A stretch of DNA of 64,000 nt from positions 1,445,180 to 1,509,179 of the forward strand of contig CBDCSU010000005.1 in the NCBI GenBank assembly GCA_965221775.1. The letters run 5' to 3'. Of this stretch, positions 20,032-37,032 are shown piece after piece (the stretch's first letter is position 1; each line of letters begins with the position of its first letter). The position numbers were made by a program, and so were the translations under genes. The DNA is from Candidatus Latescibacterota bacterium (GTDB lineage Bacteria > Latescibacterota > UBA2968 > UBA8231). The notes beneath the pieces are model-generated. The model was not told the origin of the DNA. It was given only the letters and a program-made list of their open reading frames with translations, and made no database searches.

Positions 20032-21398
20032 CACCAGACCTCCCCGGCCAGGCGCGCCTCCAGCTCGTAGGCGTGGGCGCCGGTGATCTCCACTTCGGCG
20101 AAGCGGCCCACCAGCCGGTCCCCGTCCGGGGCCTCCGGCGCCGCCCCCTCGATGGGGGTCAGGCCCTCCGGCCCCGGCGCCTCGAGGACCACCTGCCCGT
20201 CGATCTCCGGCGCGTCGCGCTCGAGCCGGCCGGTGATCCGCCCCTCGGAGACGGAGTCGATCAGCATCTTCCGCCGCGTGCCGACCATGTCGTGGTTGAT
20301 CGCCGCCGAGATGCGCTCCTGGAGCTGGGTCAGGCGGCGGTAGCGGTCGGCGGTGACGTGGGCCGGCAGCTTGCCGTCCAGCTCGAAGGCGGCGGTGCCC
20401 TCCTCGTCGGAGTAGAGGAAGCAGGTGGCGTTGTCGAAGCGGGTCGTCTCGATGAACTCCAGCAGCTCCTCGAACTGTTCCTCCGTCTCGCCCGGGAAGC
20501 CGACGATGAAGGAGGAGCGCAGGCCGACGCCGGGCATGCGCCGGCGCAGGCGGTGCAGCAGGTCGAGGGTCTTGCGGCGCGTGGTCGCCCGCTTCATGCG
20601 CCGCAGCACCGGGTCGGCGATGTGCTGCAGCGGCATGTCCACGTAGCGGCACATCTTCGGGTGGCCGGCGTAGAAGTCGAGCATCTCCGCGGTCCAGAAG
20701 GCCGGGTAGGTGTACATCAGCCGCAGCCACTCGATCCCATCCACCCCGGCCAGCTGCTCCAGCAGCGGCACCAGCCGCGGCCGCCCGTAGAGATCGGCGC
20801 CGTAGCGCACCGAGTCCTGGGCCACCAGGACCAGCTCGCGCACCCCCGCCGCCGCCAGCCGCTCGGCCTCGGCCACCAGCTCCTCCACCGGCTCGCTCAC
20901 GTGGCGGCCGCGGATGGCGGGGATGGCGCAGAACGCGCACTGGTGGTCGCAGCCGTCGGAGATCCGCAGGTAGGCCCAGTGGCGCGGCGTCAGGCTGGTG
21001 CGCGGCAGGCGGTCGACGTAGTGGCCGCGGCTGCGGCCGAGGAGGCGGTCCACGTGGCGCACGATGTCCCGCTCCTCGCGCAGGGTGAGGACCACGTCGG
21101 CCTCTTCGGACAGCTCCGCCTTCACCTCCTCCTCGTAGCGCGTCGACAGGCAGCCGGTGACGACGACCCCCTTGCAGCGGCCCGACTCCTTGAGGCGGGC
21201 GGCGGCCAGGATCGTGTCGATCGACTCCTCCTTGGCCGGCTCGATGAAGCCGCAGGTGTTGACGATGACCACGTCGGCGTCATCCGGATCGCCGGTGAGG
21301 GTGTAGTCGTTGCCGCGCAGCAGGCCGAGCATGCGCTCGGAGTCGACCGTGTTCTTGGGGCAGCCGAGGCTGATGAGGTGGACGCGGGAGTCGCTCAT
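20031..21398 (-). CDS. rimO: Ribosomal protein S12 methylthiotransferase
   Basis: SLGCPKNTVDSE, NTCGFIEPAKEES, radical SAM GCDHQCAFC, DAPEIDG in the TRAM domain. Confidence 0.95.
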   Translation of the reverse strand: MSDSRVHLISLGCPKNTVDSERMLGLLRGNDYTLTGDPDDADVVIVNTCGFIEPAKEESIDTILAAARLKESGRCKGVVVTGCLSTRYEEEVKAELSEEADVVLTLREERDIVRHVDRLLGRSRGHYVDRLPRTSLTPRHWAYLRISDGCDHQCAFCAIPAIRGRHVSEPVEELVAEAERLAAAGVRELVLVAQDSVRYGADLYGRPRLVPLLEQLAGVDGIEWLRLMYTYPAFWTAEMLDFYAGHPKMCRYVDMPLQHIADPVLRRMKRATTRRKTLDLLHRLRRRMPGVGLRSSFIVGFPGETEEQFEELLEFIETTRFDNATCFLYSDEEGTAAFELDGKLPAHVTADRYRRLTQLQERISAAINHDMVGTRRKMLIDSVSEGRITGRLERDAPEIDGQVVLEAPGPEGLTPIEGAAPEAPDGDRLVGRFAEVEITGAHAYELEARLAGEVW

Positions 21399-22498
21399 GG
21401 GTACCTGCGCTGCAGGAAGGATACGGCCTCGCGGACGATCTCGTCGTCGACGCCGTCCACGACCTCGACGCGGCCGATGCCGCGGGCGAGGATGAAGCGG
21501 TTGCGCCCGGAGGCGCGCTTCTTGTCGGCCCGGGTGTGCTCGAAGATGCGCCCGGCGTCGATGCCGCCGACCCCGGGGCGCACGCCCAGGCGCTCCACCA
21601 GGGCGTCGTGCCGGCCCCGCGCCCCCTCGCTCTCCCACAGGCCGAGGCGCGCCGCGATCTCGGCGGCGGCGGCCATGCCGAGCAGCACGGCCTCGCCGTG
21701 GCGGAAGCCGTATCCGGAGGCCGCCTCGATGGCGTGGCCGAGGGTGTGGCCGTAGTTGAGGATCGCCCGCAGGCCGCCCTCGCGCTCGTCGGCGGCGACC
21801 ACCCCGGCCTTGATGCGGGCGTTGCGGGCGATGAGGTCGTCCAGCTCGGCGGCGCCGATGCCCATCTCCACGACCTCCTCCAGGCGCTCCTCGAGGAAGG
21901 CGAAGAGCTCCTCGTCGCGGATGACGCCGTGCTTGACGACCTCCGCCAGGCCGGCCACCACTTCCTCGCGCGGCAGGGTGCGCAGGCTGTCGGTGTCGGC
22001 CAGGACCAGCCGCGGCTGGTGGAAGGCGCCCACCAGGTTCTTCCCTTGGCGCAGGTTGACCGCCGTCTTGCCGCCGATGCTGGCGTCGACCTGGGAGACG
22101 ATCGTCGTCGGCACCTGCACCACGTCGACGCCGCGCAGGTAGCTGGCGGCCACGAAGCCGGCCAGGTCGCCGACGACGCCCCCGCCGACGGCGGCGACCC
22201 AGGCGCCGCGGTCGAGGCCGGCGGCGGACATGCCCGAGGCCAGCTGCTCCACCGAGGCCAGGTTCTTGCCCTCCTCGCCGGTGGCGTACTCCAGGAGGAG
22301 GACCTCGAAGCCGGCGTCGCCCAGGCTGCGGCGGACCTGCTCCACGAAGGTCTCCGCCAGGGCCGCGTCCCCGATGAGGGCGCAGACCTTCCCCAGCCCC
22401 AGGCCGCGGCAGCGCTCCCCGAGGACGCCGACGGCGCCGTGACCGACGACGATGTCGTAGTCCCTCCCGCCCGGCAGCCGGACGGCGACCTCCTTCAC
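21395..22498 (-). CDS. aroB: 3-dehydroquinate synthase
   Basis: GGGVVGDLAGF, QVPTT, DASIGGKT, KNLVGAFHQP, LNYGHTLGHA, HGEAV. Confidence 0.95.
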   Translation of the reverse strand: MKEVAVRLPGGRDYDIVVGHGAVGVLGERCRGLGLGKVCALIGDAALAETFVEQVRRSLGDAGFEVLLLEYATGEEGKNLASVEQLASGMSAAGLDRGAWVAAVGGGVVGDLAGFVAASYLRGVDVVQVPTTIVSQVDASIGGKTAVNLRQGKNLVGAFHQPRLVLADTDSLRTLPREEVVAGLAEVVKHGVIRDEELFAFLEERLEEVVEMGIGAAELDDLIARNARIKAGVVAADEREGGLRAILNYGHTLGHAIEAASGYGFRHGEAVLLGMAAAAEIAARLGLWESEGARGRHDALVERLGVRPGVGGIDAGRIFEHTRADKKRASGRNRFILARGIGRVEVVDGVDDEIVREAVSFLQRRYP

Positions 22499-23031
22499 GA
22501 GGCGCGCTCCTCCAGGCGCCGGACCAGGCCGCCGGCCACCGCCGCGGCCGAGGTCTGCTCCGAGGTGCGCACGGTGATGTCGGCGGCACCGTAGAAGGGG
22601 GCGCGCTCGGCCAGCATCTCCTCGATCCGGCTCCGCCGCTGCTCCGGCGTCAGGCCGGCCAGCAGGGGGCGGTCCTCCTTCCGGGACAGCCGCTTGAGAA
22701 TGGTCTCCACGTCGGCTTCGACGCAGACGAGGACGGCGCCGGCGCCGCGGATCGCCTCGCGGTTCCCGCTCCGGGTGATCGCGCCGCCTCCGAGGGCGAC
22801 GACGGCCCCGTCGAGGGCCGCGGCCTCCCGCACGCAGGCGGACTCCAGCTCGCGGAAGGCCTCCTCGCCGCGGTCGGCGAAGATCTCGGGGACCGTCTGC
22901 CCGGCGCGCTGCTCCACCATCTGGTCGGTGTCGTAGAAGGGTCGGCCGAGACGGGCCGCCAGCAGCCGGCCGATGCGGCTCTTGCCGGTGGCCATGAAGC
23001 CGGTGAGGAAGATCGGCCGCGGGCGCTCCAC
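22495..23031 (-). CDS. aroK: Shikimate kinase
   Basis: GFMATGKS, GEEAFRELE, LGGG, RPLL, ERAPFY. Confidence 0.93.
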   Translation of the reverse strand: MERPRPIFLTGFMATGKSRIGRLLAARLGRPFYDTDQMVEQRAGQTVPEIFADRGEEAFRELESACVREAAALDGAVVALGGGAITRSGNREAIRGAGAVLVCVEADVETILKRLSRKEDRPLLAGLTPEQRRSRIEEMLAERAPFYGAADITVRTSEQTSAAAVAGGLVRRLEERAS

Positions 23032-24740
23032 TACATCTCCTCGGGGGCGCTCATGCCGAGCAGGTCCAGCCCCGTGCGCAAGACCCCGCGCGTCCCGTCC
23101 ACGAGCCGCACCCGCGCCGCCGTCAGGGCCTCGTCGCCGGCCACCAGCACGGGCACCTCGTTGTAGAGCTTGTTCGCCGCCGTGGCCAGCTCCAGCAGGT
23201 AGCCGGCCACGTACGACGGCTCGTTCTCCTCGGCCGCGGACTCGACGACGCCGGGGAACTCGGAGAGCTTGCGCGCCAGCCGCATCTCCCCGTCCTCTCC
23301 CAGGCGGCCGGTGTCGGCGGCCGGGTCCACGGGGCGGCCGTGGCGCCGCAGGATGCTGCAGTAGCGGGCGTGGGTGTACTGCACGTACGGCCCGGTCTCG
23401 CCGTCGAAGTTGAGGACCTCCTCCAGGGAGAAGTTGATGTCGCGCGTGCGGCGGTTGTTGACGTCGGCGAAGACGACGGCGCTGATCCCCACCTGGCGCG
23501 CCACCTCCGCGGCGCCGGGCAGGTCCGGGTTCTTCTCGGCGATGATGCCCTCCGTGAGGGCGATCGCCTGGTCGAGGACCTCCTCGAGGATGATGATCTC
23601 GCCCTTGCGCGTGGCCAGGGCCCGGCCGCGGAAGGACATGAGCCCGAAGGGCGCGTGCTCGCAGCGGCCGATCCAGTCGACGCCGGCCCGCCGCAGGGCG
23701 CCGAAGAGCTGCTCGAAGTGCAGGCTCTGCCGCTTGTCGGTGACGTAGACCATCTTGTCGAAGGCGTGTTGCCGGTGCCGGTAGAGGAGCGCCGCCAGGT
23801 CGCGGCTGTGGTAGGTGCTGGTGCCGTTGGAGGTGCGCAGCATGAGCGGCGCCGGCTGGTCCTCGAGGGGCACGATGAGGGCGCCCTCGCTCTCCGCCGC
23901 CAGCCCCCGCTCCTCGAAGAAGGCGATCACCTCGTCGAGCTGGCCGGCGTAGTGGCTCTCCCCCAGGCTCTCGTCGAAGCGCACGCCGAGGATGCCGTAG
24001 ATGCGCTCCGCCTCCTTGCGGCCCTCCTCCGAGAACCAGCGCCAGAGCCGGGTCATCTCGTCGTCGCCGGCGGCCAGGGCCCGCAGGCAGTCCCGGGCCC
24101 GGTCGCGCAGCTCCGGGTGCTCCTCGGCCTCGCGGTTGAAGCGCACATAAAGGGCGACCAGCTCCCGGATCGGGTCGGCGCGGATGCGCTCGTCGTCGCC
24201 CCAGGCGGCGTACGCCGCCAGCAGCTGGCCGAAGTTGGCGCCGTAGTCGCCGAGGTGGTTGATGCCGACGCAGCGCCAGCCGAGGAACTCGTGGATGCGG
24301 TAGATGGCGTGGCCGATGGCGGTGGAGCGCAGGTGGGCGATGGAGAAGGGCCGCGCCAGGTTCGGCGACGAGAAGTCGATGGCCACGGTGCGGCCGGCGC
24401 CCTGGCGGCGGCTGCCGTACTCCCGGCCGCCGGCGGCGATCTCGTCGAGGGTGTGGCCGATGAAGGCGGGCCGGTGGAGGGTGAAGTTGACGTACGGGCC
24501 GGCGGCGGCGACGGCGGCGATGCGTCCCCCGGGGCCGGTCTCCGGCTCGATGCGGGCGGCGATCTCGGCGGCGATCTGGGCCGGGTTGCGGCGAAGCTCC
24601 TTGGCCAGGACGAAGCACGGGAGAGCGTAGTCGCCCATGCCTTCGTCCGGGGGTACGGCGAGCAGCCCGCGCACGGTGGACGGGTCCAGGCCTCCGGCGG
24701 CGGCCGTCCTGTCGACGATCTCCTCCAGGAAGGGGTTCAC
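23031..24740 (-). CDS. argS: Arginine--tRNA ligase
   Basis: GPYVNF, DFSSPNLARPFSIAHLRST (HIGH-like), NHLGDYG, TRKG, FDGETGPYVQYTHAR, APEEM. Confidence 0.95.
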   Translation of the reverse strand: MNPFLEEIVDRTAAAGGLDPSTVRGLLAVPPDEGMGDYALPCFVLAKELRRNPAQIAAEIAARIEPETGPGGRIAAVAAAGPYVNFTLHRPAFIGHTLDEIAAGGREYGSRRQGAGRTVAIDFSSPNLARPFSIAHLRSTAIGHAIYRIHEFLGWRCVGINHLGDYGANFGQLLAAYAAWGDDERIRADPIRELVALYVRFNREAEEHPELRDRARDCLRALAAGDDEMTRLWRWFSEEGRKEAERIYGILGVRFDESLGESHYAGQLDEVIAFFEERGLAAESEGALIVPLEDQPAPLMLRTSNGTSTYHSRDLAALLYRHRQHAFDKMVYVTDKRQSLHFEQLFGALRRAGVDWIGRCEHAPFGLMSFRGRALATRKGEIIILEEVLDQAIALTEGIIAEKNPDLPGAAEVARQVGISAVVFADVNNRRTRDINFSLEEVLNFDGETGPYVQYTHARYCSILRRHGRPVDPAADTGRLGEDGEMRLARKLSEFPGVVESAAEENEPSYVAGYLLELATAANKLYNEVPVLVAGDEALTAARVRLVDGTRGVLRTGLDLLGMSAPEEM

Positions 24741-24750
24741 CCGGCTGCCC

Positions 24751-25584
24751 TCACGGCTCGATGGCCCGGCGCATGGCGTCCACCGGCGGCTGGACGCCGG
24801 TCCAGATCTGGAAGGACCGGGCGCCCTGGTGGACCAGCATCCCCAACCCGTCCAGGGCCCGCGCCCCGGCGGCCCGGGCCTGCTCCAGGAGGCGCGTGCG
24901 CAGCGGCTTGTAGACGATGTCGAGGACGACCATGCCGTCGTGGAGGACGCTCCCGTCGCCCAGGGGCGAGACCCCGGCCTCCGGCTCCATGCCGATGGAG
25001 GTGGCGTTGATCACCAGTCCCGCCTCGCGCACGGAGCCGGTCTCCGCCAGCGGCGCGACACGCACCCGGCGGCCATCGTCCATGGCCTCGGCCAGGCTCT
25101 CCGCCCGGGAGAGGGTGCGGTTCAGCAGGATCACCTCCTCCACCTCCCCGCGGCAGAGCAGGGCGTGGAGGACGGCCTTCGCCGCCCCCCCGGCGCCGAG
25201 AAGGGCGACCTTCGGCGGCAGCCGCTCCAGGCCGCCCTCGCCCAGACTGGCCAGCACCCCGTACGCGTCGGTGTTGTGACCCACCAGGCGGCCGTCCCGG
25301 TGGTCGATGGTGTTCACCGCGCCGATGGCCCGCGCCTCGGGGGCGACCTCGTCGAGGCCGGGGATGACCGCCTGCTTGTGGGGCACGGTGACGTTGAGGC
25401 CGCGGACCCCGAGGTGGCGCATGGCCGCGCCCACGTGGGCGGCGCCCTCCGGCGGCACCGGGAAGGCGACGTACACGTAGTCCAGGCCGGTGGCGGCCAG
25501 GGCCGCGTTGTGCATCGCCGGGGACGCCGAGTGCGCCACCGGATGGCCGATGACGCCGAGGACCCCGGTCCGTCCGGAGATCAA
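24751..25584 (-). CDS. aroE: Shikimate dehydrogenase
   Basis: GHPVAHSASPAMHN, NVTVPHK, GAVNT, NTD, GAGGAA, INATSIGM, GLGMLVHQG. Confidence 0.93.
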   Translation of the reverse strand: MISGRTGVLGVIGHPVAHSASPAMHNAALAATGLDYVYVAFPVPPEGAAHVGAAMRHLGVRGLNVTVPHKQAVIPGLDEVAPEARAIGAVNTIDHRDGRLVGHNTDAYGVLASLGEGGLERLPPKVALLGAGGAAKAVLHALLCRGEVEEVILLNRTLSRAESLAEAMDDGRRVRVAPLAETGSVREAGLVINATSIGMEPEAGVSPLGDGSVLHDGMVVLDIVYKPLRTRLLEQARAAGARALDGLGMLVHQGARSFQIWTGVQPPVDAMRRAIEP

Positions 25585-25721
25585 CCGAGGAGATCCTCCA
25601 GGAACTGGTCGGCGATCTCGAGGGACTCGCTCCAGCTGGCCCCGTAGAGGACCTTGATCATCAGGACACCGCCGCCGAAGACCACGGCTCCGAGCACCAG
25701 CAACCGCAACATCGTTCTCAT
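25581..25721 (-). CDS. Small (46 aa) putative membrane protein
   Basis: MRTMLRLLVLGAVVFGGGVLMIKVLYGASWSESLEIADQFLEDLLG; overlaps the AroA-like stop (TGATG) and the aroE start; AGGAG upstream. Confidence 0.6.
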   Translation of the reverse strand: MRTMLRLLVLGAVVFGGGVLMIKVLYGASWSESLEIADQFLEDLLG

Positions 25722-27019
25722 CACGCATTCTCCTTGGCCCTTGGGGCCTGCAACCCGTCGAGTAGATCGAAGAATCCCGGGAAGGAGGCGTCGACGCACT
25801 CGGCGTCGTCGATCTCCATCTCCCCGTGGGCGACGAGACCGGCCACGGCGAAGGCCTGCACCAGGCCGGCGTGGCCCCGGCCGTCGATGCGCTCCCCCTT
25901 GAGCGGCCGTCCGCCCTCGATGACCACACCCTCCGCATACTCGCCGACCTTGGCCTCGACCCGCCGCAGCTGGCCGACGAGGTGGTCGACGAAGTCGTAC
26001 TCGCCCTGGCGCAGCGACCCGATGTCGCGGATGATGAACTCCCCCTCCGTCTGGGTCGCCAGCACCGCCAGCAGGGCCACGTGCTCCAGCAGCTCCCGGG
26101 CCCGGCGGTCGGCCACCCGGGTCGCCTTGAGCCGCCCGGAGCCCTTGATCAGCAGATCGACGCTGCCGTCGTCGGCCCCGGCGATCTCCAGCTCGCCGCC
26201 GATCTGGCGCACGAGGTCGACGAAGAGGCGGTTGCCGGGGCGCACCATCACGCGGCGCACGGCGACCTCGGCGCGGCGTACGGCCAGGGCCGCCACCACC
26301 ACGGGCAGGGCCCCGGCCAAGTCCCCGGGGACGTCCACGTCCAGGGCCTTCGGCGCCGGGCCGGGAGTGAGTGTCAGGGTGCGCACCGGGGGATCGCCCT
26401 CGCGGCCGCTCTCCACCGGGACGCCGCGTTCCTTCCAGGGCGCCTCGGCGCGGTCGCGGCAGGACGACGGCTCGCGGACCACCGTCGGCGCCTGCGCGAA
26501 GAGGCCCGCCGTCAGCAGGCCCAGCTTCACCGATGCCGGCAGGTCCGCCTCTTCGTGGCTGGCGCCTCCGGCGCCGGAAGCCGCCTCCAGGCGGAAGACG
26601 CCCCCGGCCTCTGCCGTGCCCGTGGAGCCGGAAACCGCCAGCAGCCGCAGGAGCTGATCCGCCCGGTCCCGCGCCGGCGCCGGGACCCGCACCCGGCTGC
26701 CAAAGGCTTGGCGCGCCAGGATCGCCAGCGCCGGCAGCACCGCCTCCTCCGAGCCCTCCAGGTCGAGGACATCGTCCGCCGGCTCGAGCCCCGCCAGTCC
26801 GCGGCCGTCGACGCGGAAGCCGCCGTCCTCGCCCTCGACGCCGACGCCCAGCCGCCGCAGGACGTCCACCGTCCCCGCCGCCCCGGGGGGCACGCCGCCG
26901 ATGCGGCTGGTTCCCTCGGAGACGGCCGCCATCCACAGGGCCTGGATCGCCCGGTCGCGCTCGCCGGGCACGCGGACCTCGCCCCTCAGGCGCGCCGCCC
27001 TGGAAACGGTGCGCACCAT
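25721..27019 (-). CDS. EPSP synthase (AroA)-fold protein with degenerate active-site motifs
   Basis: Colinear with class II AroA (LRGEVRVPG, VPGD, ATQTEG, SFPGFF) and in the usual tyrA-aroA position, but catalytic motifs are altered. Confidence 0.8.
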   Translation of the reverse strand: MVRTVSRAARLRGEVRVPGERDRAIQALWMAAVSEGTSRIGGVPPGAAGTVDVLRRLGVGVEGEDGGFRVDGRGLAGLEPADDVLDLEGSEEAVLPALAILARQAFGSRVRVPAPARDRADQLLRLLAVSGSTGTAEAGGVFRLEAASGAGGASHEEADLPASVKLGLLTAGLFAQAPTVVREPSSCRDRAEAPWKERGVPVESGREGDPPVRTLTLTPGPAPKALDVDVPGDLAGALPVVVAALAVRRAEVAVRRVMVRPGNRLFVDLVRQIGGELEIAGADDGSVDLLIKGSGRLKATRVADRRARELLEHVALLAVLATQTEGEFIIRDIGSLRQGEYDFVDHLVGQLRRVEAKVGEYAEGVVIEGGRPLKGERIDGRGHAGLVQAFAVAGLVAHGEMEIDDAECVDASFPGFFDLLDGLQAPRAKENA

Positions 27020-28140
27020 CAGGGGCGCCTCGCCCGGTAGCCCACGGCCTCGAGGGTCTCCACGGCGCGGTCGGCCACGTCATCGGCGTCGAACCCGAGT
27101 CTCAGGGTCCCTCCCTCCCCCTCGCGCACCTTCATCACCTCGATGTCGTTGATGTTCACCTCCTCCGCCGCCAGCACCGACGCGATCTCGGCGATCACCC
27201 CCGGACGGTCCTCGCAGACCACCAGCACCTCCGCCAGCCGGTGGATGAATCCCTTGGCGTCCCTCGGGATGCCGTCGCGGATCCGGTTGGCGTACTCGAA
27301 GTCGGCCTCCAGGGCGGCGGCGCCCACCTTGTCCCGCACCTCGGCCAGGCGCGCCTGGAAGCGGTCGACCATCTCGCGGATGCGGTCCGGGTTGGTGGCG
27401 CAGATGTCGTTCCAGACCGGCTCGAAGGGGCTGGAGGCGATCCGCGTCAGGTCGCGGAAGCCGCCGGCCGCCAGGGTCAGGAGCAGGCCCTGCCGCTCCT
27501 CGTCCAGGAGGCCCACCATCTCCACGAGGGAGGTGGCCAGCAGCTGCGGCAGGTGGCTGATGGCGGCCACCACCATGTCGTGGTCCTCGGCGGACAGCTC
27601 GAGGACGCGGGCCCCGAGGCCGCGGATCAGGTCGCGCAGGGCCTGGTGCAGCTCCCCGGGCACGGCAGCGTCGGGCACCAGGATGTAGATCGCGTTCTGA
27701 AACAGGAACGGATCGGCGGCCGTCACCCCCGACTTCTCGGAGCCGGCCATGGGGTGGCCGCCGAGGAACCAGGCGTCCGACCGGCCGCTGGCCGCCGCGG
27801 CGGCGGCGATGCGGCGCTTGGTGCTGCCCGCGTCGGTGACCAGCGCCCCTGCGGGCACCGCCGCCATCACCCGCGGCAGGAAGTCGATGATGTGGCGGAT
27901 CGGCGAGCACAGGAAGACGAGGTCCGCCTCGGCCAGCCCCCGGTCGACGGCGTCGTAGTCCCAGCCCTCGTCCACGGCCCCGAGGGAGACGGCCTTCTCC
28001 ACGGTCTGCGGCCGGCTGATGCCGACGATGGAGCCGGGGTACCCCGTGCGCCGCAGGGCCAGACCGATGGAGCCGCCGATGAGCCCGACGCCGACGATGC
28101 CGACCCGCCGGAAGCGCGAGGACCGGTTGGCGGTGCTCAC
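27019..28140 (-). CDS. tyrA: Prephenate/arogenate dehydrogenase with C-terminal ACT domain
   Basis: GVGLIGGS, TDAGSTK, GGHPMAGSE, SHLPQ, GFRDLTRIASS, ACT domain EDRPGVIAEI. Confidence 0.93.
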   Translation of the reverse strand: MSTANRSSRFRRVGIVGVGLIGGSIGLALRRTGYPGSIVGISRPQTVEKAVSLGAVDEGWDYDAVDRGLAEADLVFLCSPIRHIIDFLPRVMAAVPAGALVTDAGSTKRRIAAAAAASGRSDAWFLGGHPMAGSEKSGVTAADPFLFQNAIYILVPDAAVPGELHQALRDLIRGLGARVLELSAEDHDMVVAAISHLPQLLATSLVEMVGLLDEERQGLLLTLAAGGFRDLTRIASSPFEPVWNDICATNPDRIREMVDRFQARLAEVRDKVGAAALEADFEYANRIRDGIPRDAKGFIHRLAEVLVVCEDRPGVIAEIASVLAAEEVNINDIEVMKVREGEGGTLRLGFDADDVADRAVETLEAVGYRARRP

Positions 28141-28421
28141 CGCTCCTCGTCCCCCCCGCCTTCGAGGATTCGCGCCTCGGCCATGATGCGGGCGAAGACG
28201 TCGGCGATCGCCTCCTCGCTCAGGGGCCCCCGGTTGAGGGCCTGAAGCCGCTCGATGAGGGCCCGCTCCCGCGCCCGGTCGCGGATCTGGCGGCCGCTGG
28301 CGCGCTTCAACTCGCCGATCTCGATGGCGTAGCCGAGTCTCTCGTTGATCAGGCCGACGATCCTGTCGTCCACCTCGTCGATGCGGGCCCGCCAGTCATC
28401 GATGTCCTTGCCTTCGGGCAT
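28137..28421 (-). CDS. Chorismate mutase, AroQ type
   Basis: WRARIDEVDDRIVGLINER, IGELK, RDRARE. Confidence 0.9.
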   Translation of the reverse strand: MPEGKDIDDWRARIDEVDDRIVGLINERLGYAIEIGELKRASGRQIRDRARERALIERLQALNRGPLSEEAIADVFARIMAEARILEGGGDEER

Positions 28422-28425
28422 GGGT

Positions 28426-29409
28426 TCAGCGCAGTCCCATGGCGCGGAGCACGGACTCCATGGTGGCCTCGGCCACCGGCCGCGCCCGGTCCCGCCCCGC
28501 CTCGAGGATCCCGTCGACGATCGCCGGATCGGCGGTGATCTCGGCGTAGCGCCGCCGCACCGGCGCCAGGGCTTCCACCACGACTTCGGCCACCTCCTTC
28601 TTCAGATCGCCGTAGCCCTTGCCCTCGAAACGGGCCTCGATGGCGGCCTTGTCCTGCCCGGAGAGGGCGTGGTGGATGGTGAGCAGGTTGTGGACGCCGG
28701 GGCGCTCCTCGTCGAAGCGGATCTCCCGCAGCGAGTCGGTGACGGCGCGGCCGATCCTGCGGCGGATCAGGTCGGGCTCGTCGAGAAGGCCGATGGCGTG
28801 GTGCTGCCCCTCCACCGACTTGGACATCTTCTTCGTCGGGTCGTCGAGCCCCATGACCCGGGCCCCCACCTCGCGGATGACCGGCTCGGGCACGGTGAAG
28901 ACCTCGCCGTAGAGGTTGTTGAAGCGGCCGGCGATGTCGCGGGCCAGCTCCACGTGCTGCTTCTGGTCCTCGCCCACGGGCACGACGGAGGTCTGGTAGA
29001 GGAGGATGTCGGCCGCCATCAGCACGGGATAGGTGAAGAGACCGGCGCCGACCCGCTCGCGGCGGCTGCCGGCCTTGTCCTTGAACTGGGTCATGCGCTC
29101 GAGCCAGCCCATGGGCGTGTTGCAGATCAGCAGCCAGGTCAGCTCGGTGTGCTCGGGCACGTGGGACTGGACGAAGAGGACGCTGCGCTCCGGGTCGATG
29201 CCGCAGGCCACCAGCACCGCCGCCAGCTCGCGCACGTTGTCGCGCAGCTCGGCCGGCTCGAAGGGCACGGTGATGGCGTGCTCGTCGACGACGCAGAAGA
29301 AGTTGTCGTAGCGCTCCTGGTCGGCCACCCAGTTGCGGATGGCGCCGATGTAGTTGCCCAAGTGGGTCTGGCCCGAGGGCTGGATGCCGGAGAACACGCG
29401 CGCCGCCAC
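28426..29409 (-). CDS. trpS: Tryptophan--tRNA ligase
   Basis: SGIQPSG, HLGNYIGA, YPVLMAADILLY, VPVGEDQKQH, KMSKS. Confidence 0.96.
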   Translation of the reverse strand: MAARVFSGIQPSGQTHLGNYIGAIRNWVADQERYDNFFCVVDEHAITVPFEPAELRDNVRELAAVLVACGIDPERSVLFVQSHVPEHTELTWLLICNTPMGWLERMTQFKDKAGSRRERVGAGLFTYPVLMAADILLYQTSVVPVGEDQKQHVELARDIAGRFNNLYGEVFTVPEPVIREVGARVMGLDDPTKKMSKSVEGQHHAIGLLDEPDLIRRRIGRAVTDSLREIRFDEERPGVHNLLTIHHALSGQDKAAIEARFEGKGYGDLKKEVAEVVVEALAPVRRRYAEITADPAIVDGILEAGRDRARPVAEATMESVLRAMGLR

Positions 29410-29410
29410 G

Positions 29411-30202
29411 TCAGCCCTCCTCGCCGCCGCCGAGCAGCTCGCGCACCGCGGCGCCCGGGTCTTCCGCCCGCATGAGGGACTCGCCCACGAGGACGGCGTC
29501 GACGCCGGCCTCGCCGAGCTGGCGCAGATGCTCGTGGTGCTCGATGCCGCTCTCGCTGACCAGGGTCACTGTTTCCGGCACGAGGGGCCGCAGCTCGAAG
29601 GTCGTGTCAAGGCTGGTCTCGAAGGTGCGCAGGTCGCGGTTGTTGATGCCCACGGGGGAGGCTTCGGCGGCCAGGGCGCGCTCCAGCTCCTCGCGGGTGT
29701 GGACCTCGGCGAGGACCGCCAGGCCCAGCTCCCGGCCCAGTCCCTGGAGGTCCTCCAGCTGGCCGCCGTCCATGATGGAGACGATGAGCAACACGGCGTC
29801 CGCGCCGATGACGCGGGCCTCGAAGAGCTGGTACGGGTCGATGGTGAAGTCCTTGCGCAACACCGGGATCCCGGCGGCCTGCCGCGCGGACTGGAGGTGG
29901 GCGTCGGAGCCCTGAAAATACGCCTCGTCGGTGAGCACCGAAAGCGCGCGGGCGCCGTTGCCGGCGTAGGCGCTGGCGATCGCCGCCGGGTCGAAGTCCT
30001 CGCGGATCACGCCCTTGGAGGGGGAAGCCTTCTTCACCTCGGCGATGAGGGAGACCCCCTCCGCGGCCAGCGCCCCGGCGAAGTCCGCCGGCTCCGGCGC
30101 GTCGAGGGCCCGGGCGCGGACCTCGGCCGCGGGCGCGTCGTGGACGCGCCGGGCCAGGAAGTCGCGCTTGCTGGCGACGATCTCTTCGAGGATGCCGGCC
30201 AT
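29411..30202 (-). CDS. trpC: Indole-3-glycerol phosphate synthase
   Basis: IAEVKKASPSKG, SVLTD, LRKDF, GINNRDL, SESGI, LVGESLM. Confidence 0.96.
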   Translation of the reverse strand: MAGILEEIVASKRDFLARRVHDAPAAEVRARALDAPEPADFAGALAAEGVSLIAEVKKASPSKGVIREDFDPAAIASAYAGNGARALSVLTDEAYFQGSDAHLQSARQAAGIPVLRKDFTIDPYQLFEARVIGADAVLLIVSIMDGGQLEDLQGLGRELGLAVLAEVHTREELERALAAEASPVGINNRDLRTFETSLDTTFELRPLVPETVTLVSESGIEHHEHLRQLGEAGVDAVLVGESLMRAEDPGAAVRELLGGGEEG

Positions 30203-30212
30203 GCCCGCCGCC

Positions 30213-31223
30213 TCAGGCGTTGCTCACCTCCACGAGCCGGTCCAGGGCCTGCCGGGCCCGGCCCGAGGCGATCGACTCGCGGGCGGCCTCGATGCCGCCG
30301 GCCAGGTCCGCGGCCACTCCGGCGGCGGCGAGGGCGGCGGCGGCGTTGAGGAGCACCACGTCCGCCCGGGGTCCGCTGCCGCCGTCGAGGACCTCCCGCA
30401 GGATGGCGGCGTTGGCGGCCGGGTCACCCCCCTCGAGGGCGGCGGCCTCGGCGCGGTCGATCCCGAAGTCGCCGGGCTCGATCTCGTAGGTGCGCACCTC
30501 GCCGTCGGCCAGCTCGCTCACCCGCGACGGCCCGGTGAGGGTGATCTCGTCGAGACCGTCGAGACCGTGGACGACAAAGGCCCGCTCCGAGCCCAGGGCC
30601 CCGAGGACGCGGGCCTGCAGCTCGGTCAGCTCCGGCGCGAAGACGCCCATGAGATGGCGCGTCGCCCCGGCGGGATTGGTCAGCGGCCCGAGGATGTTGA
30701 AGACGGTGCGCGTGCCCAGCTCCCGGCGGGGGCCGATGGCGTGCTTCATGGCGCCGTGCAGGGCCTGGGCGAAGAGGAAGCCGATGCCGGCCTCGTCGAG
30801 GCAGGTCCCCACGCGGGCCGGGTCGGCCTCGATGTTGACGCCCAGCTCGGCGAGGACGTCGGCGGAGCCGCACCGGCTCGAGATGGCGCGGTTCCCGTGC
30901 TTGGCCACCGTGCACCCGGCGCCGGCGGCGACGAAGGCGGCGGTGGTGGAGATGTTGAAGGTGCCCGAGGCGTCGCCGCCGGTGCCGCAGGTGTCGAGCA
31001 GGGGCGGCCGGCCGCCGGAGATGCGCGTCGCCTTGGCCCGCATGACCTCGGTGAAGCCGGCCACCTCGTCCTCCGTCTCGCCCTTGCAGCGCAAGGCCAC
31101 GAGGAAGCCGCCGATCTGGGCGTCCGTCGCCTCGCCGCTCATGATCTGGTCCATCACGGCGGTGGCCGTCTCCCGGTCGAGGTCGCGGCCGGCGATGAGT
31201 TGCTGAATCGCGTCCTGGATCAT
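30213..31223 (-). CDS. trpD: Anthranilate phosphoribosyltransferase
   Basis: DTCGTGGD, FNIST, KHGNR, GSAD, FNILGPLTNP, GLDE. Confidence 0.96.
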   Translation of the reverse strand: MIQDAIQQLIAGRDLDRETATAVMDQIMSGEATDAQIGGFLVALRCKGETEDEVAGFTEVMRAKATRISGGRPPLLDTCGTGGDASGTFNISTTAAFVAAGAGCTVAKHGNRAISSRCGSADVLAELGVNIEADPARVGTCLDEAGIGFLFAQALHGAMKHAIGPRRELGTRTVFNILGPLTNPAGATRHLMGVFAPELTELQARVLGALGSERAFVVHGLDGLDEITLTGPSRVSELADGEVRTYEIEPGDFGIDRAEAAALEGGDPAANAAILREVLDGGSGPRADVVLLNAAAALAAAGVAADLAGGIEAARESIASGRARQALDRLVEVSNA

Positions 31224-31259
31224 GGTTGGTCTCCTCCTTCGGAAAGCAAGATCCCGGGT

Positions 31260-31822
31260 TCAATCCCGCGCAAGGAAGTTGCCCAGCAGGCGCTGGCCCT
31301 CGGCGGTGAGGATCGACTCCGGGTGGAACTGAACGCCCTCCACGTCCAGCTCGCGGTGGCGCAGCCCCATCACGATCCCGTCCTCGGTCTCGGCGACGAC
31401 CTCCAGACAGTCGGGCAGCGACTCGCGCTCGACGATGAGCGAGTGGTAGCGGGTGGCCACGAAGGGGTTGGGCAGGCCGGCGTAGATCCCCCGGCCGTGA
31501 TGGTGGATCTCCGATGTCTTGCCGTGCATGACGTACGGAGCGCGGGTGACGACGCCGCCGAAGGCCTGGCCGATCGACTGGTGCCCGAGGCAGACCCCCA
31601 GGATGGGGACCTCACCCGCGAAGCGGTTCACCACCTCGATGGAGATGCCCGCCACGTCGGGCGTGCACGGCCCCGGCGAGATGACGATGCGCTCCGGCGC
31701 CAGGCCGGCGATCTCGTCGGTGGTGACGCGGTCGTTGCGGTACACGGACAGCTCGGCGCCGAGCTCGCCCAGGTACTGCACGAGGTTGTACGTGAAGGAA
31801 TCGTAGTTGTCGATCACCAGGA

Positions 31823-31826
<4 letters not shown>
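31260..31826 (-). CDS. trpG: Anthranilate synthase component II (glutamine amidotransferase)
   Basis: [34 protein letters not shown]. Confidence 0.93.
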
Positions 31827-33385
<1,559 letters not shown>

Positions 33386-33933: not shown

Positions 33934-34054
33934 CAGGGTTGTCCTCTTCGACTGATCTTGCCACGAGGATGCCCGTGGCCCACTGGCGGGTTTTCTGGCG
34001 ATCCGGTCACCCGCACTCCAGGATTGGGTGGCGGTCGAGCCCCCGGACAGTTTG

Positions 34055-35020
34055 ATGATACCGCCCGAAGAACCACCCCCACCTCCCAAGGCCCCTTGGC
34101 TGTACTCGCGCCAACGCAGCCTTCTGGCTCTGCTGTCTGCTCTTGGCGGCAACGTGGGTAATCTGGACTTCCAGAAACTGCTGTTCCTTTTCTGCAAGCA
34201 GCTGTTCACGGACAGCGCCCACTACCACCGTGCCCCTTACGAATTCGTGCCATACCGATACGGCGCCTTCTCCTTCACCTGCTATGCCGATCGCCGCCGT
34301 CTGATCGAGCAGGGCCTCCTTGCCGACGACAACCAAAGTTGGGTGCTTACCGACCAGGGCCGGAGTGTCGCGGGGCCATTGCCGGACCGCAGGACGCGTG
34401 AATTCGCGCATCGGCACCGAGGACTCAGAGGCAGCGCCCTCATCGCCGAGACCTACCGCCAGTACCCCTACTATGCAGTGCGGAGCGACCTTGCCAAAGA
34501 TGTGCTCGACAAGGACAACGCGGCATACGTCCGGGTCTTGAAGGCCGCCCCTGCCACACGGTCATCGCGGCTGTTCACAATCGGCTACCAAGGGCGAACC
34601 CTTGAGTGCTATCTGAATGTGCTGATTCAAGAGGCCGTGACCATACTGTGCGATGTCCGAAAGAACGCCATCAGCCGCAAGTACGGTTTTTCCAAGAGGA
34701 CCCTTGCCAGAGCATGCGAGGGCGTCGGGATTCGCTATGAGCATCTTCCCGAGCTTGGGATCGAATCACAACAGCGCAAGGGTCTCAAGACGGCCTCGGA
34801 CTTCGAGGCTCTCTTCAGCGCTTACGAGCGGTCCATCCTGCCGAACCGGGAGGCCGCTCTTGATACGATCCGCGCCTGGCTGCGATCGGGAGATTCCGTT
34901 GCCCTGACCTGCTTCGAGCGTGATGCCGGACAGTGTCATCGGCATTGTGTAGCGGGTGCCCTTGCGCAGGTGTCCGGAACCAAGCCCGATGATCAGGGAT
35001 ATGTCGCACGGCATCTATGA
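34055..35020 (+). CDS. DUF488 domain protein with N-terminal helical/wHTH-like region
   Basis: LFTIGYQG, LCDVR, SRKYGFSK, YEHLPELG, LTCFERDAGQCHR; N-terminal DFQKLLFLF..YEFVPYRYGAFSF. Start uncertain (34028-34100). Confidence 0.82.
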   Translation: MIPPEEPPPPPKAPWLYSRQRSLLALLSALGGNVGNLDFQKLLFLFCKQLFTDSAHYHRAPYEFVPYRYGAFSFTCYADRRRLIEQGLLADDNQSWVLTDQGRSVAGPLPDRRTREFAHRHRGLRGSALIAETYRQYPYYAVRSDLAKDVLDKDNAAYVRVLKAAPATRSSRLFTIGYQGRTLECYLNVLIQEAVTILCDVRKNAISRKYGFSKRTLARACEGVGIRYEHLPELGIESQQRKGLKTASDFEALFSAYERSILPNREAALDTIRAWLRSGDSVALTCFERDAGQCHRHCVAGALAQVSGTKPDDQGYVARHL

Positions 35021-35850
35021 CAGGCACGGAGAAGCACCGCATCCTCGTCACAGTCAAGACCTACCCGACCCTGTCCAGGAAGTACGGCGAAACGGTCTGC
35101 ACGGCAGGTGTGAGAGCGGACGGGACATGGGTGCGGATCTACCCCGTGCCATTCCGCCGGCTGGATGAGGCGGAGCAATACCGCAAGTTCGACTGGATTG
35201 AATGCCGGCTGAAGCGAAGAGCCAGTGACCCGCGGCCTGAGTCCTTCAGCTTGGTTGATTTCAGCGAGCTCACTCGCGTCGGACACATCGGCACTTCCGA
35301 TAAGTGGAGTGAACGGCGACGCATACTGCTCAAGACCGCGAGAGTCTACGACACGCTCTCAGAGCTCATTGCCGCAGCCAAGGAAAATGTGGCTTCCCTT
35401 GCTGTATTCAAACCCACGAGGGTTACTGATTTCATCTGGGAAGACGACGATCGGGACTGGTCGCAGGACCGTCTTGACCAGATGCGGGCCAGGCATAGCC
35501 AGCTCGGCCTCTTTGAGGACGATCCTTGGCGACAGACTTTCCGGCTCATCAAGAAGCTCCCCTATGCCTTCTCCTATCGATTCAAGGATGCAACCGGACG
35601 ATCCAGCGAACTCCAGGTGCTGGACTGGGAGGTTGGCGCCCTCTACTGGAACTGCTTGAAGTCGACGAACGGTGACGAGAGCGAAGCCCTTGCCAAGGTA
35701 CGGGGCAAGTACTACCAGGAGTTCCTCAGGACCGATCTACACTTCTTCCTTGGCACAACCCAGCAGTTTCACCAAGTCGGGCCGAATCCGTGGGTCGTTG
35801 TCGGTGTGTTCCCGATCCCCCACGATCCTCAGCAGCGGCTCTTTGACTAG
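35017..35850 (+). CDS. Hypothetical protein coupled to the DUF488 gene
   Basis: ATGA overlap with the DUF488 stop; 277 aa with VKTYP..YGETVCTAG, WVRIYPVPFR, DPRPES, DWEVGALYW, FFLGT. Confidence 0.8.
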   Translation: MTGTEKHRILVTVKTYPTLSRKYGETVCTAGVRADGTWVRIYPVPFRRLDEAEQYRKFDWIECRLKRRASDPRPESFSLVDFSELTRVGHIGTSDKWSERRRILLKTARVYDTLSELIAAAKENVASLAVFKPTRVTDFIWEDDDRDWSQDRLDQMRARHSQLGLFEDDPWRQTFRLIKKLPYAFSYRFKDATGRSSELQVLDWEVGALYWNCLKSTNGDESEALAKVRGKYYQEFLRTDLHFFLGTTQQFHQVGPNPWVVVGVFPIPHDPQQRLFD

Positions 35851-35876
35851 CCGTTCCGCTCCGGGACTCCCGGCTA

Positions 35877-37032
35877 GTGCTCCGTTAAGGATTCAGACTT
35901 GTACTTTTCCGTAAGTCGTTGTATCATAGGGACCTATGGCCATTTTGCCTGGGAGGGTCCGCCATGTGTCTCCATGCTCGAGCCCCGAACGCCGCGGAAT
36001 CCAAGGAACTGAGCCGGTGGCTGAAGCGGCCTCGCAATGCGGTGCAGATGCGGCGAGGACAGTTGATCTCCCTCAGCGCTCAGGGGATGCGCGTGCAGGA
36101 GCTGTCGACGACGCTGCACCTGCACGAGGAGTACGTGCGCCAACTGCTGCGCCAATACAACGAGGAAGGGTTGGCGTCGCTTCGCACGCGAGCCCATCCG
36201 GGGCGCCCCCCGGCGTTGACCCCGGAAGACGAGTCCGTGGTGGTGGAGATCGCCACCATGCCCCCTCGGGCCTTCGGCCAACCCTTCAACCAGTGGTCGC
36301 TGCGCAAGCTGACGGACCATCTGGTGGGGCGGCAGATGATCCCCAAGGTCTCGCACGTGACCATCGCCAAGGTCCTGGACCGGCATAAGGTCACCTACCA
36401 GCGGACTCGTACCTGGAAGGAGTCGAAGGATCCGGACTTCGCCGCTAAAAAAAACGAATCGACCGACTCTACCGGCGGGCGCCGAAGGACTCGGTCGTAG
36501 TCTGCTTCGACGAGATGGGGCCGGTGCAGATCAAGCCCCATGCCGGCTCCTCGTGGGCGCCGCAGAAGCGCCCGGTGCGCCATCGGGCCACCTACCATCG
36601 GCACGCCGGGGTCAGCTACTTCTTCGGCGCCTACAACGTCCACGAGGACGAGTTGTGGATGCATCACAAGCGCAAGAAGCACGCCTCGGAGGTGCTCACC
36701 TTCCTCAAGGCTATCCGGCGCCGTTACGCCAAGGCCCGACGGATCTACCTCGTCCTCGACAATCTGTCGACGCACACGACCGAACCGATCCGGCAGTGGT
36801 GTCAGCGCCATCAGGTCGACCTCGTCTTCACCGCCACCAACGCCTCCTGGATGAATCGGCTCGAATGCCATCTGACGGCCGCCCACTACTTCGTCATCAA
36901 GAACAGCGACCCGGAGGACCATCGGGACGTGGGCCAACGCATGCAGGAGTACCTCGCCTGGCGATGTCGGAACAAGGCGGATGCGGAGCTGGTGAAGGTC
37001 CAAAACTCAATGCCCACTCTTTAACAGAGCAC
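35877..37032 (+). mobile_element. IS630-family insertion sequence, apparently intact
   Basis: Ends CTAGTGCTCCGTTAAGG (from 35874) and CTTTAACAGAGCACTAG (to 37035) are near-perfect inverted repeats; TA (within CTAG) on both flanks. Confidence 0.9.
35964..37024 (+). CDS. IS630 transposase in two frames joined at an A8 site
   Basis: OrfA HTH (PGRPP, WSLRKL, TWKESKDPDF); A8 at 36447-36454; the -1 frame continues KRIDRLY..CFDEMGP..LDNLSTH..SWMNRLE (DDE). Confidence 0.88.

Follow-up and report, generated by a model that had tools for sequence, protein, structure and literature searches.

A maintained EPSP-synthase pseudoenzyme in the aromatic amino-acid operon of Latescibacterota

EPSP synthase (5-enolpyruvylshikimate-3-phosphate synthase), encoded by aroA, is both the glyphosate target and an antimicrobial target, and is among the best-studied enzymes. 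In a 64,000-nucleotide stretch of the genome of a Candidatus Latescibacterota bacterium (assembly GCA_965221775.1, contig CBDCSU010000005.1, positions 1,445,180 to 1,509,179; hereafter, the window), the aroA position of an aromatic amino-acid operon is occupied by a gene whose product, here called psi-AroA, retains the EPSP-synthase fold and has lost the residues with which that enzyme binds its ligands and carries out catalysis. The gene lies between tyrA and a short open reading frame (ORF) for a 46-residue peptide, pep46, which is followed by aroE (Table 1). We consider it very likely that psi-AroA is dead as an enzyme and maintained as a protein, and we hold it fairly probable that it is the descendant of the operon's own aroA, kept for a non-catalytic role.

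The original prediction, made from the sequence alone, had described an uninterrupted ORF of 432 codons overlapping tyrA on one side and a small ORF on the other, with the class II EPSP-synthase motifs replaced and the structural residues kept; all of these points were reproduced. The Pfam family PF00275 (EPSP_synthase) matches residues 8–419 of psi-AroA at 121.7 bits (cut-off 22.8), and the protein falls below the cut-offs of the aroA equivalog TIGR01356 (133.4 bits against 287.25) and of the murA family TIGR01072 (28.1 bits against 392.7). An AlphaFold2 model built with 74 family sequences has a predicted local distance difference test (pLDDT) score of 93.6 and a predicted template modelling (pTM) score of 0.90, and its top structural matches in Foldseek are all EPSP synthases, with E-values down to 5.5e-36. 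The closest structure is the unliganded 3roi_B, with a template modelling (TM) score of 0.81; ligand-bound, closed structures score 0.60–0.65.

The active site is another matter. HMMER alignments to the solved class II enzymes 3rmt and 1rf4 recover every motif replacement: PGDKSISHR to PGERDRAIQ, GNSGT to EGSEE, loss of RPM, SAQVK to PASVK and RDHTE to RDRAE in the N-terminal half, and GDISS to GDLAG, NPTR to RPGN, IDE to LEH, KETDR to GEYDF and DHR to HAG in the C-terminal half. None of the 21 canonical ligand-binding or catalytic sites checked is intact except for a few acidic or Arg positions; the Lys of PGDKS is Arg, the Arg of SISHR is Gln, the Asn/Gly of GNSG are Gly/Glu, the Arg of RPM is Asp, the Ser/Gln of SAQ are Pro/Ser, the Asp of IDE is Glu, the Lys/Glu/Arg of KETDR are Gly/Glu/Phe and the His/Arg of DHR are Ala/Gly. 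When 78 family members were aligned with 40 canonical enzymes (the genome's own second AroA, described below, and 39 database matches), the sites at which the canonical enzymes never vary proved to be not only replaced in the family but different from member to member—K21 (Leu in 58%), S22, R26, N89, R118, S161, Q163, K339, R343, H384 and R385—and Gly, Leu, Ala and Pro residues of structural importance are retained across the family. Scored over the same 21 sites, four of four canonical enzymes from the equivalent operon position in other families keep all 21, 20 sampled full-length dead proteins keep almost none, and two half-length proteins, from which lobe 2 and its sites are missing, retain only a subset of the lobe-1 sites. 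Homology to an enzyme combined with loss of its catalytic residues is what defines a pseudoenzyme, and by this sequence criterion psi-AroA is one, predicted to be without EPSP synthase catalysis. The variability of the former ligand sites would also argue against a role in sensing shikimate-3-phosphate or phosphoenolpyruvate.

Loss of chemistry has not been accompanied by decay of the gene. A database search returned about 80 relatives at 41–94% identity, separated by a clear score gap from ordinary AroA at about 33% identity; they derive from metagenome-assembled genomes labelled Latescibacteria/Latescibacterota or Gemmatimonadetes and carry the NCBI name 'hypothetical protein'. Among 168 genomes of the phylum, 75 besides our own belong to the window's GTDB family (f1), and 72 of these 75, spread over 18 genera, hold an intact full-length psi-AroA orthologue at 40–92% identity with no frameshift; the three genomes without a match are only 58–86% complete. 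Flags of '1 TGA inside' on some orthologue matches were traced to terminal stop codons overrun by the alignment, the ORFs themselves being intact. Dozens of genomes carry this same intact gene and peptide, and a chance origin is therefore impossible. Ratios of nonsynonymous to synonymous substitution rates (dN/dS), estimated by the Nei-Gojobori method on orthologue pairs, are 0.09–0.36 for psi-AroA (median 0.245, 20 pairs), 0.05–0.27 for tyrA at the same loci (median 0.175, 18 pairs) and 0.07–0.39 for aroE (median 0.185, 20 pairs). The suggestion that this is a maintained, non-catalytic protein of AroA fold is thus upheld by purifying selection and by retention throughout f1, and recent decay with a dN/dS near 1, which would have told against it, is excluded by the median of 0.245. 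The constraint is uneven: lobe 1 (the N-terminal strand and residues 231–427) has a median dN/dS of 0.15 and lobe 2 (residues 21–230) one of 0.32, each over 18 pairs, and column identity is 0.67 in the C-terminal part of lobe 1 and 0.54 in lobe 2.

A second, canonical aroA, which the original prediction supposed might be encoded elsewhere, does exist in this genome, and nearly all relatives have one too. Our genome has exactly two matches to PF00275/TIGR01356, psi-AroA and a 436-residue protein on contig C4 (G000:C4:628129-629373; loci L001 and L172) that scores 343 bits against TIGR01356 and has the catalytic set intact. An aroA above the cut-off occurs in 153 of the phylum's 168 genomes, and in f1 the second aroA always lies away from the operon slot. 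Nine f1 genomes lack an aroA above the cut-off (G095, G096, G097, G101, G124, G128, G149, G157 and G158); leaving G097, G124 and G128 out of the closer examination, we found a class I-like AroA, split in two by the model, in G149 and G158, aroA fragments at a contig edge in G095 and G101, and an aroA fragment in G096. Even within f1 the second aroA is of at least three types (L047, L051 and L069–L080 among the loci): one with the motif PSSKNYTAR (338–373 bits), one with PGSKSYTNR (413–435 bits) and the class I-like, model-split form, which suggests that the catalytic aroA was replaced repeatedly while the dead operon copy stayed put. One genome, G037, has two aroA copies above the cut-off plus a half-length protein. 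In the neighbourhood of the C4 gene (L172, G000:C4:621000-637000), a gene of the NAD-dependent epimerase family lies 4 nt upstream and a Meth_synt_2-like gene nearby. No murA was found in our own assembly, where TIGR01072 and PF00275 match only the two AroA-like genes; four of four genomes of the same genus have a murA above the cut-off (438–457 bits), and the absence is most likely an assembly gap in a genome of 96.8% completeness.

The order tyrA–X–pep46–aroE is kept across the phylum, and what fills the slot X differs by family. In f5, f7 and f9 it is a canonical class II enzyme with 21 of 21 sites and 406–417 bits against TIGR01356; these slot enzymes are the nearest canonical relatives of psi-AroA, at 32–37% identity. 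In f1, f3, part of f4 and f10 it is full-length but dead, the lineages outside f1 being more diverged. In a quick maximum-likelihood tree of 42 rows, for which Shimodaira–Hasegawa-like approximate likelihood ratio test (SH-aLRT) values are the only support, all dead slot proteins cluster with the canonical slot enzyme of f9 (SH-aLRT 97) inside class II, a grouping of long-branched lineages to which long-branch attraction may have contributed in part, and the second AroAs all fall in a separate clade. The conserved slot order and the grouping in the tree together indicate that psi-AroA is the old operon gene, decayed in place, and not an import.

Further evidence on what selection retains comes from relatives that have only one lobe. 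The slot protein is just 214–227 residues long in 21 of 21 g31 genomes and in two of three f2 genomes: at a VPGD motif the N-terminal strand passes straight into the C-terminal half, lobe 2 having been cleanly excised, and what remains aligns only to residues 227–427 of psi-AroA. A Shine-Dalgarno sequence of their own precedes the genes for these half proteins, whose median dN/dS is 0.13 (36 pairs with dS of 0.05–1.5), next to 0.10 for tyrA and 0.13 for aroE. An AlphaFold2 model of a half protein (pLDDT 91.2) fits one EPSP-synthase lobe with query-normalised TM scores of 0.78–0.80 and a root-mean-square deviation of 2.3–2.5 Å over about 198 columns. One lobe cannot build an inter-lobe active site, and the selected role of the half proteins is therefore non-catalytic and resides in lobe 1, the sole part they keep and also the most constrained part of psi-AroA in f1. 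Lobe 2 looks to have been deleted exactly from one VPGD motif to the other in a fold that repeats internally (L039, L043, L081–L091). The g31 and f2 half proteins share just 38–40% identity and other f4 genera have full-length copies, so that the deletion, judged from these sequences, may have happened twice.

From these observations we propose that a second canonical aroA at another genomic site would have taken over the reaction, that the operon's class II EPSP synthase would then have lost catalysis, and that purifying selection now keeps the folded, non-catalytic psi-AroA for a role that lobe 1 would play in the aromatic amino-acid pathway, be it protein binding or scaffolding or else regulation. 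That lobe 1 binds another protein, and that psi-AroA acts in this way, may well be so, although we stop short of calling it probable. The most likely partner would be TyrA, given the translational coupling to its upstream gene and the existence of TyrA-AroA fusions in other bacteria; we nonetheless offer it as a tentative candidate that may easily be wrong. EPSP-synthase lobes resemble the RNA-cyclase/IF3-type fold, and nucleic-acid binding, considered as another role, was dropped since all forms of the protein are net acidic. More speculatively, and in our estimation improbably, lobe 1 could be a dedicated interaction or regulatory module, derived from an ancestral moonlighting surface, that as an obligatory partner tunes TyrA or AroE or that organises a membrane-proximal shikimate metabolon with pep46; if this were true, the single-lobe proteins would represent a new class of pathway-organising pseudoenzyme in its minimal form.

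Several observations weigh against a retained non-catalytic role of this kind. As a weak point, no TyrA–psi-AroA fusion occurs among the longer relatives, where there is only one unrelated AroA-Cmk protein. Residues conserved throughout the dead lineages have mainly structural roles and do not pick out any new surface shared by them. In G157, an f1 genome that is 90% complete, a second aroA was not found; our own second aroA adjoins an epimerase-family gene and not aro genes; and the C4 gene is taken to be an EPSP synthase from its hidden Markov model score and conserved sites only. Moreover, species G050 has tyrA–pep46–aroE with nothing in between, psi-aroA having been lost, and G040 retains a remnant of only about 157 residues, from which it follows that the function is not indispensable everywhere. 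Finally, eight residues specific to f1—E20, R190, R206, R260, R264, R301, R306 and H346—are conserved at 0.92 or more in that family and lie at or beside the former motifs, and the Arg/His residues among them could be a remodelled ligand site.

This last point is the core of an alternative in which the cleft of the f1 proteins has been rebuilt to bind some other anionic metabolite, making psi-AroA a sensor or a new enzyme. K165, R337 and D342 are retained as well, and lobe 2, though less constrained than lobe 1, is still under purifying selection at its dN/dS of 0.32. We nevertheless regard such remodelling as unlikely, given that neither the half proteins nor the other dead lineages conserve most of these residues, that single-lobe forms without a cleft are equally constrained and that most former ligand positions differ among f1 genera.

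A slowly eroding relic is rather more doubtful. The ORF would on this account stay open mainly so that ribosomes read through to pep46 and aroE (through coupling and polarity), and the constraint would reflect avoidance of a misfolded product. Stop and start codons do overlap at both ends of psi-aroA, its dN/dS exceeds that of the neighbouring genes, the former active-site positions drift, and sister lineages form a graded series from full-length through half-length and about 157 residues to absent. Coupling alone, however, would hardly yield zero frameshifts across 18 genera and 40–92% identity, and in-frame shortening, which coupling would tolerate equally well, is not seen in f1. The dN/dS of lobe 1 equals that of the adjoining real enzymes, and the half proteins, with their own Shine-Dalgarno sequence, are under constraint as strong as noted above.

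The original prediction had further suggested that pep46 anchors psi-AroA to the membrane, the two acting jointly. In support, the genes are directly adjacent wherever both exist, stop and start overlapping as ATGA at most f1 loci: pep46 follows the psi-AroA gene in 29 of 30 loci, always with 46 residues, and the 30th locus runs off its contig. The peptide is found, in single copy, in 146 of the 168 phylum genomes, is more conserved than psi-AroA (M1, W30, E32, F40 and D43 are invariant; dN/dS 0–0.28) and has 246 database clusters, all unnamed; it has no NCBIfam match, its only Pfam match is at chance level (14.8 bits), and its ESM Atlas neighbours are unnamed clusters only. A specific coupling is not supported by comparison across the phylum, since pep46 follows canonical slot aroA in f5, f7 and f9, persists where the dead enzyme has been reduced to half, stays beside aroE without any AroA-like gene in G050 and G031, and in f6 adjoins fmt/def, away from the aro genes. 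Residues 2 and 6 of pep46 are Arg or Lys and its helix is followed by an acidic tail, a charge distribution which by the positive-inside rule suggests that the conserved acidic helix may face away from the cytoplasm; this would also speak against a tether. A complex prediction of psi-AroA with pep46 gave a score of 0.00, which counts neither for nor against binding. We therefore consider joint action by an anchored pair very unlikely: occurring with canonical aroA, without psi-AroA and outside the operon, pep46 predates the loss of catalysis and is independent of the pseudoenzyme. It is a real, separate and older membrane micro-protein of the same operon. In G031 (L066, 3611-4600; family f13), about 1 kb upstream of pep46–aroE is without a convincing ORF, and neither tyrA nor aroA is present.

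That psi-AroA still works as an EPSP synthase, by way of an unorthodox active site, as its intact fold, its pathway context and the lack of another detected aroA in G157 might allow, is scarcely credible, since psi-AroA lacks the Lys and Arg residues by which solved enzymes bind their two substrates, with replacements that differ among genera, the equivalog score is far under its cut-off, and a canonical aroA exists in the same genome and nearly all relatives.

Among known systems, class II EPSP synthases (3rmt, 1rf4, 3roi and the CP4 enzyme 2gg4) share with psi-AroA the two-lobe fold, the length and the slot after tyrA, at 25–37% identity, the nearest canonical relative being the slot enzyme of f9; psi-AroA differs in that each checked substrate-binding Lys, Arg, Ser, Asn and His is replaced, in failing the equivalog cut-off and in having single-lobe relatives. 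Its best NCBIfam match is PRK14806, a TyrA-AroA fusion, at 151 bits against a cut-off of 902 and over the AroA half only; the order of tyrA then aroA is the same, whereas here the two are separate genes with a 1-nt overlap and the AroA part is dead. HisZ, which works with HisG, is a catalytically inactive enzyme homologue whose gene accompanies those of its pathway and which has been kept to partner or regulate a biosynthetic enzyme; its parent enzyme family differs from that of psi-AroA, and a partner is known only for HisZ. In fungi, the activator QutA resembles the 3-dehydroquinate (DHQ) synthase and EPSP-synthase domains. Conceptually, the AROM-derived regulators of fungi (the repressors QutR, qa-1S and GaaX and the activator QutA) are the nearest precedents: like psi-AroA they are shikimate-enzyme domains without catalysis, retained in their case for regulation. 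The fungal repressors resemble the three C-terminal AROM domains at 20–30% identity, their enzymatic function being presumed lost, according to PMC6528562. The fungal proteins are eukaryotic multidomain transcription regulators, whereas psi-AroA is bacterial, of a single domain family, encoded in an operon, without a DNA-binding part and net acidic. No bacterial EPSP synthase that is conserved yet catalytically dead came up in our literature searches; the accessible text of PMC12610400 contains nothing on EPSPS-like regulators, and that of 10.1101/2020.05.27.118265 mentions 'unclassified EPSPS' and no inactive forms. MURA1/MURA2 were rejected as a precedent, being active paralogues and not dead ones.

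The gene sits in a supra-operon that by Pfam assignment runs trpE–trpG–trpD–trpC–trpS–CM–tyrA–psi-aroA–pep46–aroE–argS–aroK–aroB, CM being chorismate mutase (Table 1). The ATG of psi-aroA and the stop codon of tyrA have one base in common (TGATG), the ATG of pep46 overlaps the TGA of psi-aroA with AAGGAG 8 nt 5' of pep46, and aroE begins with a TTG (25584) that overlaps the TGA of pep46. About 250 nt upstream of trpE lies a promoter-like, sigma-70-like site at 33662-33634(-) (TTGACA-17-TACTAT, 10/12), a candidate promoter for the whole operon; the same scan of the window found no promoter-like or terminator-like site beside psi-aroA, and an Rfam scan of the whole window gave zero matches, hence no leader RNA or riboswitch family. 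Weak evidence of transcription comes from assembled contigs of one RNA library, in which DNA carry-over is possible and strand and level are not given: contigs of a relative 94–97% identical span psi-aroA and bridge its junctions. Two aminoacyl-tRNA synthetase genes, trpS (28426-29409) and argS (23031-24740), both on the minus strand, lie inside the aromatic operon, argS being placed between aroE and aroK phylum-wide. The G+C content is about 0.60 at positions 1-2000 and 34001-36000 of the window, against about 0.72 elsewhere.

Table 1. Features of the psi-AroA locus, in window coordinates (aa, amino acids; AF2, AlphaFold2).
Feature	Position	Strand	Basis or remark
psi-AroA (432 aa, EPSP-synthase fold, without canonical ligand/catalytic residues)	25721-27019	-	ORF list, Pfam, HMMER alignments, AF2, Foldseek
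psi-AroA N-terminal strand, part of lobe 1	26960-27019	-	
psi-AroA lobe 2 (residues 21-230)	26330-26959	-	Less constrained; missing from single-lobe relatives
psi-AroA lobe 1, C-terminal part (residues 231-432)	25724-26329	-	Most constrained, together with the N-terminal strand
pep46, 46-aa micro-protein	25581-25721	-	Hydrophobic N-terminal helix, acidic C-terminal helix SWxESLEIADQFxEDLL
aroE, shikimate dehydrogenase	24751-25584	-	Pfam Shikimate_dh_N, SDH_C
tyrA, prephenate dehydrogenase with ACT domain	27019-28140	-	Pfam PDH_N, PDH_C, ACT
Chorismate mutase CM_2, upstream of tyrA	28137-28421	-	Pfam CM_2, 78.9 bits
Aromatic supra-operon, whole	21395-33385	-	Pfam

Automatic annotation, and glyphosate-sensitivity classifiers that count PF00275 matches, would miscall psi-aroA as aroA. 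Beside it, pep46 adds a phylum-wide, unnamed micro-protein family inside a core biosynthetic operon. Above all, within one phylum and in the same chromosomal slot, the active enzyme, the full-length dead form, the single lobe and outright loss make up a natural series in which the turning of a metabolic enzyme into a pseudoenzyme, and what retains it, can be studied unusually cleanly.

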